Assembly: GCA_934457095.1 (NCBI GenBank) | Contig: CAKSHJ010000009.1 | Coordinates: 2,621-66,620, forward strand | From: an uncultured Eubacteriales bacterium | Lineage (GTDB): Bacteria > Bacillota > Clostridia > Oscillospirales > Acutalibacteraceae | Direction of reading: 5' to 3' | DNA length: 64,000 nucleotides | In this document: one piece after another, positions 4,171-54,380 of the stretch | Layout of the letters: every line of letters begins with the position of its first letter | Position numbering within the stretch: position 1 is the first letter of the stretch | Notes under the pieces: generated by a model | Seen by the model: the letters and a program-made list of their open reading frames with translations, nothing else | Database searches by the model: none | What the model was told of the DNA's origin: nothing | Made by a program: the position numbers and the translations under genes

Positions 4171-5726
4171 TTACCTTGTACTTTGCTGTAAAGATGATTC
4201 TGTTGAAGCATCTTTTTGATGTGTGAGCCAGGATTTTAGATTTTTCAGGCTGATTCCGGAAATTTGATTTAGAGTATCTGTAGCGATTAAGAGCAAAAGA
4301 GGTGTAAAGGAGTAGATATAGCGGGAGCGGGTCTCCCAAATTAGCAGAAAGAGAAATAGTCCGTAGACGGCCAATTTGCATAGCAGGGTAGCATCTATTT
4401 TGCCGTTTTTGATGCCGAGGACAAGGGAGAGCATAAGCAGGGTTAATAGAGCTAAATGGAAGCCTTGGCTATAATAATAAAAGACATTGTAGCAATCTTC
4501 CCTATGCACAGGGTTATCCTTGGGGCTCAAAAAATACCATAATTTAGAGTTTGTCTCTAAATAAGTTCTACCTTCCCCGAAAAGAAGATAGGTACCATCT
4601 CCCCAAGTGTTGTGCACAGCTTTGTTGGTAAGGTGATTCATGAGTCCCGCAAAACCAAATTCGGAAATGCGTTTTTTAATCTCCGCAATATTTGCTTGCT
4701 TTTTTTCTTTTGCTCCATGAATGGAATCGGTAAATGCAGGGTCTTCATCGTTCCAGCCACCGTCTCCGCTTAATCCCATCATTACATAATGGGTAAAGGG
4801 ACGTGCGTTTTCATTGCGCAGTTCGGCGGAGACGACTCGTGGCTCTGCAATGGTATTAAAGGAGAAGAAAATAACCACAAAAGCGGCAAGCATGACAGCG
4901 GTGGCTTTTAAAAAAGCAAGTATTTTTTGGCTTAAAATGAGATGAATTAAAATCGCCGCCAAGATGATAGCAACGCTGCCTTTTAGTTTGTAGCCTAATG
5001 CTAACAGGATGCCTGCGCTTGCATAGAGTGTGTATGCGATTGCCGGTTTTTTGCTTGTAACGGCACAAAGGTATAAATAAATGGGAATAACCACAAAGGG
5101 CAGAGCAAAGGTATCGGTATAATATTGCGAGGTATAGGTGTAAAATGGCGCAAAGAAAAAACACACCACAGCGGTAAGCAAACCAATGTGAGCCCCCATA
5201 GTTTGTTTGCAATAAGATAGGTGAATAGTACACCGATATAAATAAAGCAAATATTCAGTATAATGGCATAGTATACGCTGGTGCTACCAGACAGTGCAAA
5301 GACAACTTTGTAAAATGTTTTTAAAATTAGATATATAAAAATATTGTTAGGACATGTGGCAAAATAAGAAAGATCGGGTGTGTCGGTAACGGAGGCAACG
5401 GCGGCATTATAAATTGCAGCGATATCCCAAGTATAGGTTGCTTTGAGAGAGAAACCGAAATACATCAACAACGCGAACATAATAGCGGAGATGCCGGCAA
5501 AAATGAAATGAATGGTTTTGGGCTTCCATTTTACTGCAATTTTACGACAAAAAACGGTGATGGCAATGCCCACAGCGATAAAACCTATTCCCAAAAGTGC
5601 AGAAAGCCAAGGCATACTACCGCTGTTTGTGACGATAATGCTGCCATAAATCCAAGCAAATGAAGCAAAAAACAATGTCTGAAAAATACGACTTAAAATG
5701 GGTTTAACGGTGGTAGGTTTTGGCAT
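4171..5726 (-). pseudogene. polytopic membrane GT-C-like (ArnT/PMT-like) glycosyltransferase, split by a -1 frameshift
   Basis: Two overlapping minus-strand ORFs (5001-5726 and 4171-5250) are both multi-TM. Sensible sequence switches frame at ...YLIANKLWG / AHIGLLTAVV... inside a C5 run (5193-5197, G5 on the coding strand). One extra G would give a single ~520-aa ORF. Confidence 0.6.
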
Positions 5727-22183: not shown

Positions 22184-22411
22184 TTGACAACCCATACTGG
22201 TTGTGCTATTATATTCTACAAGCTGTACTTTATCCAAAGACAGCGGGTGCTGTTTGCGTAACAGAGTTTTTGACTCTACCCGCCGAGGAAAAAGCACAAT
22301 ATACATGCCCTTATAATGTGTATTTGCCTTTCCTGTCTTTCTTTCAAGCAGGGGAGGCTTTTTGTGTTAAGGATAATGGACTGCATCTGACCGATGATGG
22401 AGGTGAATACA
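22184..22411 (+). promoter_or_regulatory. rplJL promoter plus L10-leader-type attenuator
   Basis: TTGACA (22184-22189), 17-nt spacer, TATTAT (22207-22212). The leader contains AAAGACAGCGGGTGC...CCCGCCGAGG. A terminator-like hairpin GCCTTTCCTG / CAGGGGAGGC (22326-22335 / 22349-22358) is followed by T5, just before the rplJ RBS. Confidence 0.6.
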
Positions 22412-29971: not shown

Positions 29972-30323
29972 ATGCGAGCAGACTGAGCAGTCGCGGGTAC
30001 AACTCGAAAGGGTGTGCTTGAGGAAAGTCCGAGCTCCACAGGGCAGAATAACGGCTAACGGCCGCCGGGGGTGACCCTAGGGATAGTGCAACAGAGAGAT
30101 ACCGCCCGGTTTTTACCGCGGCAAGGGTGGAAAGGCGAGGTAAGAGCTCACCAGCGTACAGGAGACTGTACGGCTATGTAAACCCTATTCGGAGCAACAC
30201 CGCAGAGAAACATATAGCGCTTGCCCGGCGCGTTTCGAGAAGGTGGCATGAGCCGTGGCGGCAACGCCCGGCCAAGATAGATGACTGTTCACGACAGAAC
30301 TCGGCTTATAGGTTTGGTCGCAT
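29972..30323 (+). ncRNA. rnpB: RNase P RNA, bacterial type A
   Basis: Universal core GAGGAAAGTCCGAGCTCCACAGGGCA near the 5' third and ACAGAACTCGGCTTATAGG near the 3' end. P1 pairs ATGCGAGCAGACT with AGGTTTGGTCGCAT. The ends are approximate. Confidence 0.9.
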
Positions 30324-30324
30324 G

Positions 30325-35347: not shown

Positions 35348-35409
35348 CGGTATAGAAAAAACTGTCGGATATTGCCCGGCAATTTTTTGAAGAATACGAG
35401 AAAATGCTA

Positions 35410-35438
35410 TTGACTTATACAACTGCCTGCGGTATAAT
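35410..35438 (+). promoter_or_regulatory. promoter of tRNA-fMet
   Basis: TTGACT (35410-35415), 17-nt spacer, TATAAT (35433-35438). Confidence 0.65.
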
Positions 35439-35470
35439 AATAATTGCGCAATCCGCTAATGTATTATTAT

Positions 35471-35547
<77 letters not shown>

Positions 35548-36116
35548 CACACATGATAAGTTCGGAATTTGAACTTATCATAGAGAAAAGCTAACAAGCC
35601 TTGTGTTTGCGGGCTTTTCTCTATGATATGCAGCTCGGTTGCAGCACTGCTGTGGTAAGCATTCCCTCTTACCGGGGATTAGACATCGTCTGGCGCGCTT
35701 TGTCCGGCGCAGTGCAGGGTATCAATTTGCACCTGTTGGCTCGGAGAGCTGCCGCTACTATGCTGCAACCGCTATGGTATAAGTCTGCACAAGTATTCAA
35801 AGTGCAATTTGAATATTTGTCTTGGCTTATATTGTCAAGGTACTTGAGGGTAAAACAAGAATTCGCACCTCCCGAAAGAAGTGCGAATTCCCTATAAAGA
35901 CTTGAATAATATCTCAAAGTGTGATACAATCACACCCATGAGGCATTGATCAGTCGGAGAGTACTGTCTTACTTCTTCCGGCGCAAGCCTTATAGGAATT
36001 GGAGTTCCTATAAGGCTATCGGTGCTTTCTTTTGTTTTACCTAAGTTGATTGTATACTATTTGTTTGCTTTTTGCAAGTAAAATTTTACATTTTTTTAAA
36101 AAATTTTTTAGAGTAG

Positions 36117-36132
36117 TGGGACGTACGTCCCA
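36117..36132. repeat. palindrome copy 1 (TGGGACGTACGTCCCA)
   Basis: Perfect 16-bp palindrome overlapping the -35/spacer region of the toxin-1 promoter. Confidence 0.9.
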
Positions 36133-36137
36133 GGTCG

Positions 36138-36146
36138 TGGTATAAT
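36138..36146 (+). promoter_or_regulatory. extended -10 promoter of small ORF 1
   Basis: TGgTATAAT located 48 nt upstream of the small-ORF start codon. Confidence 0.5.
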
Positions 36147-36193
36147 AGGCATGCTGCCTACCCAATCCGTCAGCGGAGAGGGGGTGAAAACCG

Positions 36194-36277
36194 ATGTCAC
36201 AATACATAGTTTTACTCAATGCTATCCTGACAGGTGTATTTATACATCTAATTTGTCAATGGATAGACAGGAAGTAG
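36194..36277 (+). CDS. candidate type I toxin peptide 1 (27 aa, MSQYIVLLNAILTGVFIHLICQWIDRK)
   Basis: Below the ORF-track cutoff; found by hand. Strong SD GGAGAGGGGGTGA (36174-36186). The peptide has a hydrophobic helix plus a short charged tail, and is followed by a 12-bp-stem hairpin and a convergent promoter. Confidence 0.5.
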   Translation: MSQYIVLLNAILTGVFIHLICQWIDRK

Positions 36278-36287
36278 CTTAGGCAGC

Positions 36288-36358
36288 AATCAAAGAACCC
36301 CCGGAGTTCACACCTCCGGGGGTTCGCTTGTGTTCCAATGTCACACATAGTTTTACTA
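36288..36358 (-). ncRNA. candidate antitoxin sRNA 1 (convergent antisense transcript)
   Basis: Minus-strand promoter TTGCAA (36387-36392), 16-nt spacer, TATAAT (36365-36370). The predicted RNA starts with the complement of ATGTCACACATAGTTTTACT, a near-copy of the toxin start region, and ends at the shared hairpin. Ends are inferred. Confidence 0.45.
36295..36325. terminator. bidirectional hairpin shared by small ORF 1 and its antisense RNA
   Basis: GAACCCCCGGAG / CTCCGGGGGTTC, a perfect 12-bp stem with a 7-nt loop. U-rich sequence follows on both strands. Confidence 0.6.
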
Positions 36359-36363
36359 ATTTC

Positions 36364-36438
36364 TATTATACACGAAAATTTGTTTTTTGCAAGTATTTTT
36401 GAAATAAATTTTGGTGCAGTTTGGGACGTACGTCCCAA
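36364..36438. repeat. 75-bp cassette copy A (antisense promoter plus palindrome)
   Basis: Identical at 74/75 positions to 36709-36783 by hand alignment. Confidence 0.85.
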
Positions 36439-36439
36439 A
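36420..36439. repeat. palindrome copy 2 (TTTGGGACGTACGTCCCAAA)
   Basis: Perfect 20-bp palindrome. Confidence 0.9.
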
Positions 36440-36459
36440 AGAGATTGTTTTGCCGAAAA

Positions 36460-36488
36460 TTGTCGAACGATTTTATTTGTGGTATAAT
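36460..36488 (+). promoter_or_regulatory. promoter of small ORF 2
   Basis: TTGTCG (36460-36465), 17-nt spacer, TGg-TATAAT (36480-36488). Confidence 0.5.
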
Positions 36489-36530
36489 GGTTGAGCTGTC
36501 GACTCTTTCCAGCAGGAAGGAGGTGCCTGC

Positions 36531-36617
36531 GTGGAACTTAAAACAACTTTCTTTATTTCTGTCATGGCAAATGTAACTTCATATTACATATGCAAACGGT
36601 TGGACGGAAGTAAATAG
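36531..36617 (+). CDS. candidate type I toxin peptide 2 (28 aa, (M)ELKTTFFISVMANVTSYYICKRLDGSK)
   Basis: Found by hand. GTG start lies 5 nt after GGAAGGAGGTG. The C-terminal pattern Y-I-C-K-R-L-D resembles H-L-I-C-Q-W-I-D of peptide 1, and the downstream architecture is the same. Confidence 0.5.
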   Translation: MELKTTFFISVMANVTSYYICKRLDGSK

Positions 36618-36631
36618 CGACAGCTCAACCA

Positions 36632-36703
36632 AAAAAGAAAGCCCGGGGAACTGCAATTCCTCGGGCTTTCGCTTATGCCTGCATGGATATATAACAACTT
36701 TCT
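36632..36703 (-). ncRNA. candidate antitoxin sRNA 2
   Basis: Minus-strand TTGCAA (36732-36737), 16-nt spacer, TATAAT (36710-36715). The predicted RNA carries the complement of TGCCTGCATGGATATATAACAACTTTCT, a diverged copy of the toxin-2 SD/start region 36523-36559, and ends at the hairpin plus U6. Ends are inferred. Confidence 0.45.
36637..36670. terminator. bidirectional hairpin shared by small ORF 2 and its antisense RNA
   Basis: 14-bp stem GAAAGCCCGGGGAA / TTCCTCGGGCTTTC. The preceding A6 gives a U6 tail on the minus strand. Confidence 0.65.
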
Positions 36704-36708
36704 ATTTG

Positions 36709-36783
36709 TATTATACACGAAAATTTGTTTTTTGCAAGTGTTTTTGAAATAAATTTTGGTGCAGTTTGGGACGTACGTCCCAA
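36709..36783. repeat. 75-bp cassette copy B
   Basis: See copy A. Confidence 0.85.
36766..36783. repeat. palindrome copy 3 (TTGGGACGTACGTCCCAA)
   Basis: Perfect 18-bp palindrome. Confidence 0.9.
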
Positions 36784-37296
36784 CAGGAAAGAGAAAAAGA
36801 AGCAAAAAGAGAAAGCGCTGCGGCGGGATTTTAAGGGGGAGAGGAAAGCCAAAGATAAAGAGAAATGCCACCTTTCCTCTCCCCCTCGCTACGCTTCACC
36901 CCCACACCTATCCGTCATTTCTCCCTGTTTGAGAGAGAAAAAGAAAGTAATATTTTCATTGTTTTTACATAAATAACAAAAAATGGAAACAATACTTTGA
37001 CTTACAAAGAAAAAAGGGATTCTGCGTAAAAATCAAACATTCATTTCATCCATAAAAATACCAATTAAGCGGTCAATTTCATCTTGATTTTTTACGTAAC
37101 TTATACTTTTTTCTTCTTTGCCAGTAAAAATGATATTAGACTTATTCGTTATGGGTGTCATTTTTGGTAGAGGGTGGGTGTCATTTACAGTATTGTTGAT
37201 CAGTTAGATACCACCAAACGGTTTATGTAGCACAAGGTTACAAGAGTAAATCGTCCTGTGGACCCGGCATCAAATAAACATACTAGGGGTATCATC

Positions 37297-37806
37297 ATGA
37301 TTTGCGTGGGAATTGACGTTGCCAAGGACAAGCACGACTGCGTCATCCTCAGCTCGGAAGGCGAAGTCCTGGCAGATGTATTCGCCATCCAAAACAACGC
37401 AGAGGGCTCTGACACGCTGCTGCAAACCGACCTCTACCGGAAAGGCTGGTTTCGACCCTTCACACGGCATCCGTTTACGCACTTCCCGGCGAGTTCCCCG
37501 GAGTTAAAAGCGCACTTAACACATTTGAAAACGCTCTTAAATGACGTCTCCAAAGGCCGCTATGGGAGAGATATGGCAACAACACTTCGAGATGCCGCCA
37601 GATGTTCCGTCGGCTCTGTTATGCCGGCCAAGTCTCTGGAACTGCGGCATACGATCCACTTAATTCACGGACTGGACACCGAAATTGAGGTCGCTATCCA
37701 GTCCATGATGGAGGAAATACAGTCTCCCATTACGACGATTCCGGGCATTAGCGTTCGTATGTTGGTTCGGCTGATTTATGCTTTGGAGAAGAATACAGCC
37801 GCATAA
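37297..37806 (+). pseudogene. IS110-family transposase remnant (internally deleted and C-terminally truncated)
   Basis: The N-terminus MICVGIDVAKDKHDCVILSSEGEVLADVFAIQNNAEG matches the DEDD/RuvC-like IS110 domain. It jumps directly into ...KGRYGRDMATTLRDAARCSVGSVMPAKSLELRHTIHLI...SPITTIPGIS of the C-terminal domain. It is only ~170 aa against ~400 expected. Confidence 0.75.
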
Positions 37807-37941
37807 CAACTTTTCTCTCATATGCTTAGCTGGGTGTCCGATTGGACGTCTGCTTTGCGATACCCTTTTTGAACCGCCTACTTTTTGGCCATTCTTCGTA
37901 TTTTAGGCTTGACTTTTAATAATTAGTCTTTCTTTTTTGCT

Positions 37942-37954
37942 GGGACGTACGTCC
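37942..37954. repeat. palindrome copy 4 (GGGACGTACGTCC, 13 of 14)
   Basis: Followed by TGGATAAAAT, which resembles the TGGTATAAT after copy 1, and by a terminator-like hairpin ATCACAGC / GCTGTGAT. Confidence 0.8.
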
Positions 37955-38060
37955 TGGATAAAATAAAAAATCACAGCCGGAGCTGTGATTTTGCGGGTAT
38001 ATTGTCTTTTTTTGTAAAATTGTGTAATATGGGGCTATTAACTTAAAAGGGGAGAAGAAT

Positions 38061-39029
38061 ATGAAATTTACAGAAAACACTTTATTTAAGGATTATGCGG
38101 TTTTTTGGCTGGAAAACTATGTTCGTGGTTTTGTAAAGGATAACACATATATGGGTACCTATTACCGTCAAACGCACAACGCCTTAATTCCGTATTTTGG
38201 GAACATGGCAATATCAGATATAAAGTCAAGCATCATTCAGGAGTTTTTCAATATTCAAGGAAAACGATATTCTCTGGAAACCATGAAAAAGATGAGATTT
38301 TGTTTATCCAACATATTGCAAGTAGCCGTAGATGATGAAATTATTTCTAAAAACCCTCTCAATAAAAGGATTCGGCTAAAGAGCAATATTGAACCTATTG
38401 AAAAACATGTTTGGAATCGAGAGCATTTTGAATGTGCGTACCGCTTCGCTTTGCTGCACCCGCAAGGGTTGGGTCCGTTACTACTAATGGATACCGCGAT
38501 TAGTCGCAGTGAACTATTAGGGATAGAGTGGGGGAATGTGCTTTGGAGTGAGGGGTGCATAGCAATACGGAATGGTACGGTTATTGTACAAGACCCCGAA
38601 ACGAAAAAACATTACCTTTTGACCGATGGATTAAAAAATAAATATCGTATGCGTAATATTCCGTTGTCAAAAGATGTTTATAATTGTTTAAAGTTACACT
38701 ATCAGCGCATTTTATTTTTAGGGCAGCATAAAGGATTGACCCAGAATCAAATCAATAAGCAATTTGTGATTTCAAATCAAAAAGGGGGAGCGATGGATCC
38801 AAATAATTGGGCAAAAAGAAATTTTAGACGCTTTATGAATGATTTAACATCTCAATATCCAGAGATACCGGTTTTAACTCCACATGAATTAAGGCACACT
38901 AGAGCTACGCTATGGTGGGAGGAAAAAGTAGACCTTTTATCTCTTGGTATGGTTGGTGGTTGGAGAAACCTTAGAATGTTGCGTGAAAGATATGCGCATA
39001 GTAATATTGACCATTTGAAAAAACTTTGA
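38061..39029 (+). CDS. tyrosine-type site-specific integrase
   Basis: 322 aa. N-terminal SAM-like core-binding domain and C-terminal catalytic residues (R...HELRHTRAT...LRERYAH). Own promoter TTGTCT-N17-TAATAT (38002-38030) and RBS AAAGGGGAG. Confidence 0.85.
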   Translation: MKFTENTLFKDYAVFWLENYVRGFVKDNTYMGTYYRQTHNALIPYFGNMAISDIKSSIIQEFFNIQGKRYSLETMKKMRFCLSNILQVAVDDEIISKNPLNKRIRLKSNIEPIEKHVWNREHFECAYRFALLHPQGLGPLLLMDTAISRSELLGIEWGNVLWSEGCIAIRNGTVIVQDPETKKHYLLTDGLKNKYRMRNIPLSKDVYNCLKLHYQRILFLGQHKGLTQNQINKQFVISNQKGGAMDPNNWAKRNFRRFMNDLTSQYPEIPVLTPHELRHTRATLWWEEKVDLLSLGMVGGWRNLRMLRERYAHSNIDHLKKL

Positions 39030-39057
39030 ACAGATAAAGGTTCAGTGTTTATTCTTT

Positions 39058-54297: not shown

Positions 54298-54380
<83 letters not shown>

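Follow-up and report, generated by a model that had tools for sequence, protein, structure and literature searches.

We analysed a 64,000-nt stretch of DNA from an uncultured Eubacteriales bacterium (contig CAKSHJ010000009.1, hereafter the window) and describe two adjacent cassettes in it, A (36138-36392) and B (36460-36737). [quoted passage not shown] The modules are ordinary members of the known Fst/par family, and their branch is found very frequently in gut Clostridia and in the phages and small plasmids of these bacteria. The proposal goes back to a sequence-only reading of the window, made without database searches.

Architecture of the two cassettes

We read the elements of both cassettes from the sequence between 35700 and 37200, using an open reading frame (ORF) listing, a repeat scan and a promoter/terminator scan. 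Cassette A begins with an extended -10 promoter on the plus strand (TGgTATAAT, 36138-36146) that lacks a good -35 element and has its predicted transcription start site (TSS) at ~36153; the predicted toxin mRNA is ~183 nt long (36153..36335). The Shine-Dalgarno sequence (SD) GGAGAGGGGGTG (36175-36186) and an ORF of 27 amino acids with an ATG start (MSQYIVLLNAILTGVFIHLICQWIDRK, 36194-36277) follow on the same strand, and the peptide has the layout AxxxG, eight residues, W, IDRK. Downstream lies a shared hairpin terminator of 12 perfect base pairs with the loop UUCACAC (36295-36325), which is terminator-like on both strands, and at 36338-36366 of the plus strand the repeat scan found the start region of toxin A (36194-36225) a second time, as a direct repeat that has diverged. 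The promoter scan placed the antitoxin promoter on the minus strand (TTGCAA-16-TATAAT, 10/12, 36392..36365), from which we predict an antisense RNA of ~75 nt (36285..36358, minus strand) made of a 33-nt tail and the terminator hairpin. Its 5' tail is the complement of the 36338-36366 copy.

Cassette B has the same layout. Its toxin promoter, TTGTCG-17-(TG)TATAAT (36460-36488, plus strand), has a predicted TSS at ~36494, and the predicted toxin mRNA is ~187 nt long (36494..36680, plus strand). The SD GGAAGGAGG (36515-36523, plus strand) precedes an ORF of 28 amino acids with a GTG start ((M)ELKTTFFISVMANVTSYYICKRLDGSK, 36531-36617, plus strand); the peptide carries SxxxN and has R23 where the family has W, followed by LDGSK. 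The hairpin terminator (36637-36670) comprises 14 bp including one G.U pair, with the loop CUGCAA; on the minus strand it is followed by a good U-run (UUUCUUUUUUGG), on the plus strand by a weaker one. The copy of the toxin B start region (36525-36552) lies at 36677-36703 (plus strand, repeat scan), the predicted antitoxin RNA of ~77 nt at 36627..36703 (minus strand), and the antitoxin promoter, again TTGCAA-16-TATAAT with 10/12, at 36737..36710 (minus strand, promoter scan). In total, the region contains 16 promoter-like sites compared to 5.0 +/- 2.4 in shuffled sequences. An 83-nt block at 36359-36441 is repeated with 96% identity at 36704-36786.

All the elements that the sequence-only reading had listed for the two cassettes are thus present, with coordinates that are exact or within 1-3 nt, among them the diverged start-region copies and the near-consensus promoters of the opposite strand that fire back towards the hairpins. 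It had described both hairpins as long and perfect; this is true for A, whereas for B, with one G.U pair in 14 bp, the word is slightly generous. The cassettes had also been called unannotated, which fits the gene calls on contig L002. This contig is 99.96% identical to the window over 35348-38066, and no gene is called on it between a gene for a 342-aa protein and an IS110 remnant, indicating that standard pipelines miss the modules.

Both predicted toxin mRNAs fold into stable structures, with a minimum free energy (MFE) of -75.1 kcal/mol for A (z = -7.1 relative to shuffles) and -68.9 kcal/mol for B (z = -5.5). In each, a helix that the sequence-only reading had not listed closes the 5' end onto the stretch directly behind the stop codon: in A, 36153-36160 pairs with 36280-36287, and in B, 36494-36501 pairs with 36618-36625 (a 14/14 repeat at the DNA level). 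The SD of B is held in a hairpin, likewise not listed before, whose 8-bp helix is formed by 36503-36510 (CUCUUUCC) and 36515-36522. The SD of A is partly paired in the MFE fold, CCC at 36161-36163 binding three of its guanines. The predicted antisense RNAs, folded as molecules of 75 and 78 nt, each consist of a ~33-nt tail, unpaired in B and weakly paired in A, followed by the terminator hairpin, and they stop short of the toxin ORFs.

The sequence-only reading had further proposed that each antisense RNA is complementary to the SD and start codon region of its own toxin mRNA and had suggested an RNA-pairing calculation as a check. RNAduplex indeed placed each tail on its own start region: at -32.1 kcal/mol, the tail of antisense A paired with 36183-36217, which runs from the 3' end of the SD through the ATG to codon 8, and at -36.9 kcal/mol, the tail of antisense B paired with 36522-36553, from the end of the SD through the GTG to codon 8. 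Among 1000 shuffled tails (mean ~-14 kcal/mol) none reached the cognate value. The cross pairs between A and B gave -14.1 and -10.6 kcal/mol in the same calculation, far weaker than the cognate pairs, and therefore the two modules are predicted to be orthogonal.

This architecture is that of par(pAD1)-like loci (PMC7472228). In these, the two promoters converge and both RNAs end at one bidirectional terminator; direct repeats give the antisense RNA its complementarity to the translation start, beyond the region where the two RNAs overlap; and in the toxin mRNA a 5' stem-loop hides the SD while a further helix ties up the 5' end. All five features are present in both cassettes at the level of sequence and folds, which bears out the earlier comparison with the RNA I/RNA II logic of pAD1 par. 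According to the T1TAdb paper, Fst/RNAII and SprA1 interact outside the overlap, and the antisense RNA of Fst/RNAII does not cover the ORF; the same holds for both predicted modules. A YUNR U-turn in the terminator loop of the toxin mRNA is a feature that is not universal (PMC7472228); by inspection, the loop of the A terminator contains YUNR (UUCA) and the B loop, CUGCAA, does not.

The window cassettes thus resemble par of pAD1 (Enterococcus faecalis) in their convergent promoters, common hairpin terminator, antisense RNA that stays off the ORF, and pairing with the SD and start region through direct repeats; the SD-hiding 5' stem-loop and the helix that locks the 5' end are alike by the feature as described. 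The peptides of the branch resemble Fst in being membrane-spanning helices of ~30 aa with a small-xxx-small/G motif, an aromatic position nine residues later and a charged, here mostly acidic, tail; at the aromatic position B has R, and Fst of pAD1 itself has V (PMC8147318). They differ from Fst of pAD1 in having Ser (Ala in A) for the Pro of PxxxG and often Ser or Asn for its Gly. The motif YYICKWLD is specific to the branch of the window, the antisense RNA is ~75 nt long compared to ~40 nt in pAD1, and the two named repeats of pAD1 par correspond here to a single ~30-nt region split by an internal loop. The hosts differ as well, being Clostridia, their phages and small plasmids.

From these features we infer transcription, relative RNA stability, toxicity and biological role as follows. 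A weak promoter with an extended -10 and a poor -35 element would make a toxin mRNA of ~185 nt, whose 5' end would be locked to the sequence behind the stop codon and whose SD would be buried partly (A) or fully (B), so that the mRNA would be stable yet poorly translated. A stronger convergent promoter would make the ~75-nt antisense RNA, which would use the same hairpin as its terminator and pair in trans with ~30 nt of the mRNA, from the 3' edge of the SD across the start codon into codon 7 or 8. Ribosomes would then be kept from binding, and the duplex would probably be cleaved. If the antisense RNA were lost faster than the mRNA, the peptide of 27-28 aa would be made, a single membrane helix with a short charged tail that would damage the membrane or the cell envelope. 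The DNA that would be made hard to lose in this way is a decayed integrative element that lies between a tRNA-Met gene and a tyrosine recombinase gene.

The wider family and its relation to Fst

We gathered the family with degenerate DNA patterns derived from peptide alignments and with ORF-anchored extraction of cassettes. A blastn search of the locus against phages found a homologous cassette on one phage-like contig from human faeces (L001), and the same search against plasmids gave no match. An alignment of three peptides led to 59 loci on viral contigs. An alignment of 28 peptides matched at least 600 stretches in species-representative genomes, where at least 569 loci were confirmed; the genome matches listed come overwhelmingly from Lachnospiraceae, Oscillospiraceae and other Clostridia. 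By tblastn, the peptide also occurs on 27 plasmid records, where it is almost never annotated. These include plasmids of 2-7 kb from Waltera, Mediterraneibacter, Aerococcus and Streptococcus and larger ones from Ligilactobacillus. The architecture recurs in viral, genome and plasmid loci; the sequence-only reading had suggested searches in related genomes as a check.

Extraction yielded 121 distinct cassettes, which were reduced to 95 non-redundant ones. The peptide consensus is M(E/D)xLxxFLxSVxA(G/S)VVxYYICKWLDG(D/E)x, with a length of 26-33 aa in 118 of the 121. The peptide ORF is open and conserved in every related cassette that the ORF-anchored extraction kept, and a weak SD score or a non-canonical start codon was seen in 7 of the 121; the outcome that had been feared, generic repeats without linked small ORFs, was not seen. 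We also built a DNA profile from 78 loci outside the window, and in the 64 kb it matched both cassettes and no other place (E = 7e-25 for B and 2e-10 for A). What this profile recognises is the toxin mRNA from its 5' end to just past the stop codon, and not the repeat block.

The regulatory elements are conserved along with the ORF. The toxin promoter has a TG-extended -10 in 74 of the 95 non-redundant cassettes, typically with a poor -35, and the inferred 5' untranslated region is mostly 34-43 nt long, 40-41 nt being commonest. On the minus strand, 79/95 have a promoter with a score of 10/12 or better at a distance of ~80-150 nt behind the stop codon, compared to 8/95 on the other strand and 4/95 in shuffled sequences. 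Next, we scored each start region against its own downstream copy and against the copies of other loci: the mean Smith-Waterman score was 32.8 for cognate copies and 14.5 for copies from other loci. The cognate score exceeded the 99th percentile of the non-cognate scores in 93% of cassettes. Moreover, the cognate copy was the best partner in 86 of the 95, indicating that repeat and start region evolve together, which a regulatory role of the repeat's complement would lead one to expect.

The same form of cognate scoring was uninformative for the 5'-3' helix because the sequence of this helix is conserved across the family, and we used covariation counts on the alignment instead. For 80 toxin mRNAs, RNAalifold gave a consensus in which 7 bp close the 5' end onto the 3' part, the anti-SD pairs with the SD and the ORF itself contains two helices. 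This structure is 91% paired, compared to 35-45% when the partners are slid by 1-3 columns, and it has 213 compensatory cells compared to 20-72 in the slid controls. The closing helix shows GC/AU and CG/UA exchanges; the anti-SD helix is CCCC/GGGG, with U-A in some sequences. The two ORF-internal helices (about 36555-36606 of the window, in cassette B) keep GC/AU exchanges across the 80 loci, and the strongly conserved coding stretch for ASVVAYYICK folds into a hairpin. Conservation of the peptide may therefore in part reflect RNA structure.

The relation of the peptides to known toxins was examined by profile comparison. Members of the Fst/Ldr superfamily share a transmembrane helix with P/D/S/T-xxx-G, a Trp and a charged tail (PMC2887945, PMC7472228). 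Among 99 distinct family peptides, W is present in 98 and S stands at W-13 in 94; at position W-9, 64 have S, 30 have G and 5 have N. The spacing of 9 from G to W equals that in Fst EF0409 (PMC8147318), PepA1 (PDB 4b19) and LdrD (PDB 5lbj). When the family was aligned by hhalign with an alignment of Fst, EF0409, PepA1 and LdrD, the probability was 94.9%, gapless over 30 columns, compared to 1.4% for the reversed-sequence control. The family profile matched in the PDB a transporter by chance and nothing else.

With curated cut-offs of 26 bits for NF033608 and 36 bits for Pfam PF13955, 9 of 28 family members matched NF033608 and 5 of 28 matched Ldr_toxin below threshold, and none of the 28 matched PF13955. 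Fst of pAD1 itself scores 22.8 bits against the Pfam cut-off of 36, and so the threshold test is harsh for peptides of ~30 aa. A peptide from a Megamonas plasmid, WP_208854436.1, named 'Fst family toxin' by the Prokaryotic Genome Annotation Pipeline (PGAP), passes NF033608 (29.2 bits vs 26) and also matches the family profile (hhalign 98.5%); it therefore bridges the family and Fst. At its locus a TATAAT precedes the gene by ~45 nt, and an SD, a terminator hairpin, a start-region copy further downstream and a TATAAT on the minus strand are present as well. The gapless profile alignment and this bridge uphold the likeness to Fst/par that had been proposed for the window peptides. On sequence grounds, we place the family within the Fst superfamily, as a Ser-type branch whose regulation is of the par type. 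Fst-like sequences in Clostridiales have already been noted (PMC6563280, PMC2887945, PMC7472228), and thus the modules extend a known family and are not a new kind. In Rfam, no TA-related family was found in the window at the gathering score, nor at E <= 10 between 35400 and 38100.

The family was also compared with other named systems. SprA1/SprA1AS of Staphylococcus aureus, a member of the Fst superfamily, has a toxin of 30 aa (PepA1) and an antisense RNA that acts on the start region outside the overlap, and G14 and W23 of peptide A occupy the same positions as G14 and W23 of PepA1. Unlike the window peptides, PepA1 has PxxxGC and a basic tail; the tails of the window family are mostly acidic. 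The Megamonas locus has the same cassette layout and the C-terminal motif HYFCKWLD, and it differs in its Negativicutes host and in a four-residue insertion in the helix, which is also found in an allele of B (B' of contig L222, see below). Ldr of the enterobacterial Ldr/Rdl systems shows PxxxG, eight residues, W and charged residues, and LdrD is within the matching profile. Unlike the window, Ldr/Rdl resembles hok/sok in its regulation, with a leader ORF and an antisense RNA encoded opposite the 5' end (PMC2887945, PMC7472228, T1TAdb paper).

The type I toxins of Clostridioides difficile (CD0956.2-RCd10, CD2517.1-RCd8 and others) are similar in their Clostridia hosts and in that their loci often lie in prophages. 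Moreover, 21 of 28 family members matched the N-terminal 18 residues of NF047374, all below threshold (best 24.6 bits vs the cut-off of 60), which hints, on the sequences of the N-terminal helices, at a remote link of these toxins with the Fst superfamily. The C. difficile toxins differ from the window peptides in being 34-53 aa long with Lys-rich tails, and, unlike in the window, their toxin and antitoxin genes overlap convergently (PMC6563280). We rejected an assignment to the NF047374 type, given scores below 60, the mostly acidic tails and antisense RNAs that end before the ORFs.

Three further observations concern family members elsewhere. One member, MEEIFTAFLISVIAGVVSYYICKWLDGDK, is named 'SCIMP protein' in Caudoviricetes records from metagenome-assembled genomes (DAL87736.1 / DAM96363.1, nr); this is probably a misannotation derived from a weak match to Pfam SCIMP (E = 0.022, sub-threshold). 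In twelve loci (L069-L080) the peptide is 86% identical to the first query sequence, and the contigs, ~4.8-11 kb long and most of them <7 kb, are assigned to Dorea, Blautia, Ruminococcus, Eubacterium and Pseudoflavonifractor; LC817946.1 (Waltera) belongs with them. The same peptide occurs on a 542-nt contig in a Streptomyces assembly. Such contigs in many genera suggest a widely shared small plasmid or phage, or contamination.

Alleles, genomic context and a 16-nt palindrome

Contig L222 comes from another strain of the same organism (95.5% identity over window 36895-39030), and its positions 1-665 carry alleles of window 36132-36790, namely A' (MQPYISIINAILVGVAIHIICTWIDR) and B' (MSHEAFSLIRSIVAGVLTDLICYYIRKRLDRMR). 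The promoters, 5' untranslated regions and blocks of antisense promoter and palindrome are 83-100% identical between the two strains; the start region, ORF, terminator and repeat are 50-80% identical (start region, ORF and repeat 50-63%). The cognate duplexes between tail and start region in the four alleles range from -29.9 (A') to -38.4 kcal/mol (B'), compared to -10.6 to -22.7 kcal/mol for the twelve non-cognate combinations. The modelled energies thus predict that A, A', B and B' are four orthogonal toxin/antisense pairs in one species. B' also has R at the W position (KRLD), with SD, start codon, repeat complementarity and promoters intact, and the R therefore appears to be a maintained lineage trait and not a fresh lesion.

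The cassettes are situated between a tRNA-Met gene (35471-35547) and a tyrosine recombinase gene (38061-39029, generic Phage_integrase/SAM-like), with a truncated IS110 transposase gene (37258-37806) in front of the latter. Strains of the species differ at this place. In strain L004 both cassettes are missing and a ParE/DUF6290 type II TA system (L004 11745-12357) replaces window 36067-36936; addiction modules have a hot spot at this site downstream of tRNA-Met. Contigs L005 and L165, from further strains, carry parA/parB-type genes here that are absent from the window. Homologues of the recombinase (57-70% identity) adjoin parA-parB in integrated elements, and we conclude that the window holds a reduced remnant of such an element.

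Other features of the neighbourhood were noted in passing. In two other strains, L222 (3040-7499) and L219 (1121-5550), a second gene for a tyrosine recombinase comes after this recombinase gene, and with it genes for SIR2/STALD and TIR-domain proteins that have the look of a defence island; in L222 a complete IS110 transposase gene is present there too, and in the window the recombinase gene is followed by a YfhO-type gene. A 15-bp perfect inverted repeat, AGGGGGAGAGGAAAG / CTTTCCTCTCCCCCT, lies at 36834-36886 of the window and also in L222. The routine RNA genes of the window are RNase P class A (29975-30324), the ribosomal protein L10 leader (22216-22373) and tRNA-Leu (54298-54380). Proteins that share a 90%-identity cluster with ribosomal protein L10 of the window bear the names uncultured gut Clostridiales and Clostridium sp., in line with the lineage given for the DNA.

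To the left of cassette A, Unit 0 (35900-36133) has a plus-strand promoter (TTGAAT-17-TACAAT with TG, 35902-35930), a minus-strand promoter (TTGCAA-17-TACAAT, 36077..36049) and a hairpin (35986-36017), and contains no ORF. It is conserved in L004, L005 and L006, with compensatory changes in the hairpin stem in L004. With no ORF and no match to the family DNA profile, it was rejected as a third TA cassette. It shares with A and B just the right-hand block of promoter and palindrome and may be a pair of small RNAs or a relic of a cassette.

The palindrome TGGGACGTACGTCCCA occurs three times in perfect form, as P1 (36117-36132, overlapping the -35 position of the toxin A promoter), P2 (36422-36437, at the end of the 83-nt block) and P3 (36767-36782, just before the 15-bp inverted repeat), and once in degenerate form as P4 (TGGGACGTACGTCCTG, 37941-37956, ~105 nt upstream of the recombinase gene), against a chance expectation of 0.13. 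Its core, (T)GGGACGTACGTCCC(A), 14-16 nt, is lineage-specific, clusters in this element only and bounds the TA cassettes; P1 and P3 set the limits of the region marked in the sequence-only reading, which does not itself mention the palindrome. The palindrome is absent from the 139 related TA loci of other genomes and viral contigs (L010-L148) and from L001, and thus it is not part of the TA module architecture. It is also absent from the homologous recombinase elements (57-70% identity). Scans of viral and metagenome collections for the 16-mer gave isolated unrelated matches, L165 excepted.

In L165, copies lie at 156, 1419 and 2683, and L005 has one at 4766. Two of the L165 copies precede the start codons of parA and a membrane-protein gene by ~24-26 nt, each directly behind a terminator-like hairpin, and the third is part of the parB coding sequence, for the residues RDVRP. 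In three comparisons a copy is the exact point from which strains differ: window and L165 at P4, L005 and L165 in parB, and L005 and the window at P1. One L222 copy has a central T-to-C change. The parB genes of the homologous elements L208 and L211 contain no equivalent palindrome, and a role as parS has no support from covariation.

In our subjective estimate, the chance that the palindrome is a protein-binding site (parS-like or an operator), with the rearrangements as a by-product, falls a little short of even, and a site-specific recombination site is unlikely. It is decidedly improbable that the sites make TA A, TA B, parAB and the membrane protein exchangeable cassettes near a recombinase or bound by ParB. 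In that case the rearrangements between strains would take place at the palindromes, and the start region, ORF and repeat of the TA modules would be swapped as hypervariable alleles inside conserved frames; if true, a Firmicute would here possess a small system that shuffles addiction modules as cassettes. An integron consists of an IntI-type integrase, attI, attC sites (imperfect palindromes of 57-141 bp) and promoterless cassettes, and to our knowledge integrons are essentially unknown in Firmicutes. We rejected an integron here: the sites have a core of 14-16 bp, the TA cassettes carry their own promoters, the sole match of the recombinase to an integron-integrase model is NF040815 XerA with 22 bits against a cut-off of 220, and homologous recombinases occur without the palindrome.

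Alternative readings and significance

Several points weigh against two functional modules of the par/Fst kind. The SD of A is sequestered by just 3 bp in the MFE fold, and the U-tracts on the plus strand are poor after both hairpins. In peptide B the near-invariant W (98/99) is replaced by R and the G/S position is occupied by N, and peptide A has A where 94/99 have S; judged from these residues, either peptide could be attenuated. Neither peptide matches Pfam PF13955 Fst_toxin or NCBIfam NF033608, or indeed any NCBIfam family, at E <= 10 with HMMER, and at the same threshold the window peptides match none of the PDB entries of the Fst family, peptide A no PDB chain at all (4b19 included). 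Finally, the carrier element is largely decayed, and a maintenance role may therefore be vestigial.

If the RNA architecture is real, the peptides might still be something other than toxins, such as small membrane proteins of mobile elements, kept under tight antisense control, with a holin-like, superinfection-exclusion or signalling function. Many of the loci are on viral contigs, and 12 of 28 family members have sub-threshold matches to Pfam Phage_holin_3_3 (best E = 0.0037). These matches, however, are far under the cut-off (12.9 vs 28.4 bits for the first member), and the profile homology is to Fst, PepA1 and LdrD, which are described as toxic when overproduced (PMC8147318, PMC7472228). 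Moreover, 5'-3' locking, burial of the SD and an antisense RNA against the start codon are together the signature of products that must not be made (PMC7472228). We therefore consider non-toxic membrane proteins very unlikely. Another view is that the cassettes are decaying remnants, passively carried, in which one or both toxins are inactivated (W to R and G to N in B, S to A in A). In its favour, B is the only one of the 99 distinct peptides with R at the W position, the IS110 gene is truncated, the parAB genes of L165 and L005 have been lost from the element, and L004 lacks both cassettes. Yet B' also has KRLD with all its other elements intact, and functional Fst of pAD1 has V at that very position (PMC8147318, PMC7472228). 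ORFs, SDs and cognate pairing are intact in all four alleles despite ~40% nucleotide divergence, which argues for selection, and we give decay, too, a very small probability.

The cassettes could also be generic intergenic repeats, or mobile cassettes defined by the palindrome, in which the ORFs are incidental. The palindromes do bound both units, the 83-nt block is repeated almost unchanged and the differences between strains start at palindromes. In the related TA loci and L001, however, the palindrome is missing and the peptide ORF is open in the cassettes kept, few of which have a weak SD or an odd start codon; in addition, the family profile recognises the toxin mRNA and not the repeat block. 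This explanation is effectively refuted.

Two orthogonal type I TA modules of the par/Fst kind, as preferred here, leave the understanding of type I TA systems unchanged. Gene callers miss such modules, although the branch is among the commonest small-gene families on the mobile DNA of gut Clostridia, and its recognition extends the Fst/par family well beyond the Bacilli, where it has been studied. The branch offers ~100 natural toxin/antisense pairs with compensatory changes for studies of RNA-RNA specificity, and A/A' and B/B' would provide four pairs that are predicted to be orthogonal although their promoter frames are almost the same. The modules could serve as ready-made parts for counter-selection or plasmid stabilisation in gut anaerobes that are hard to engineer.

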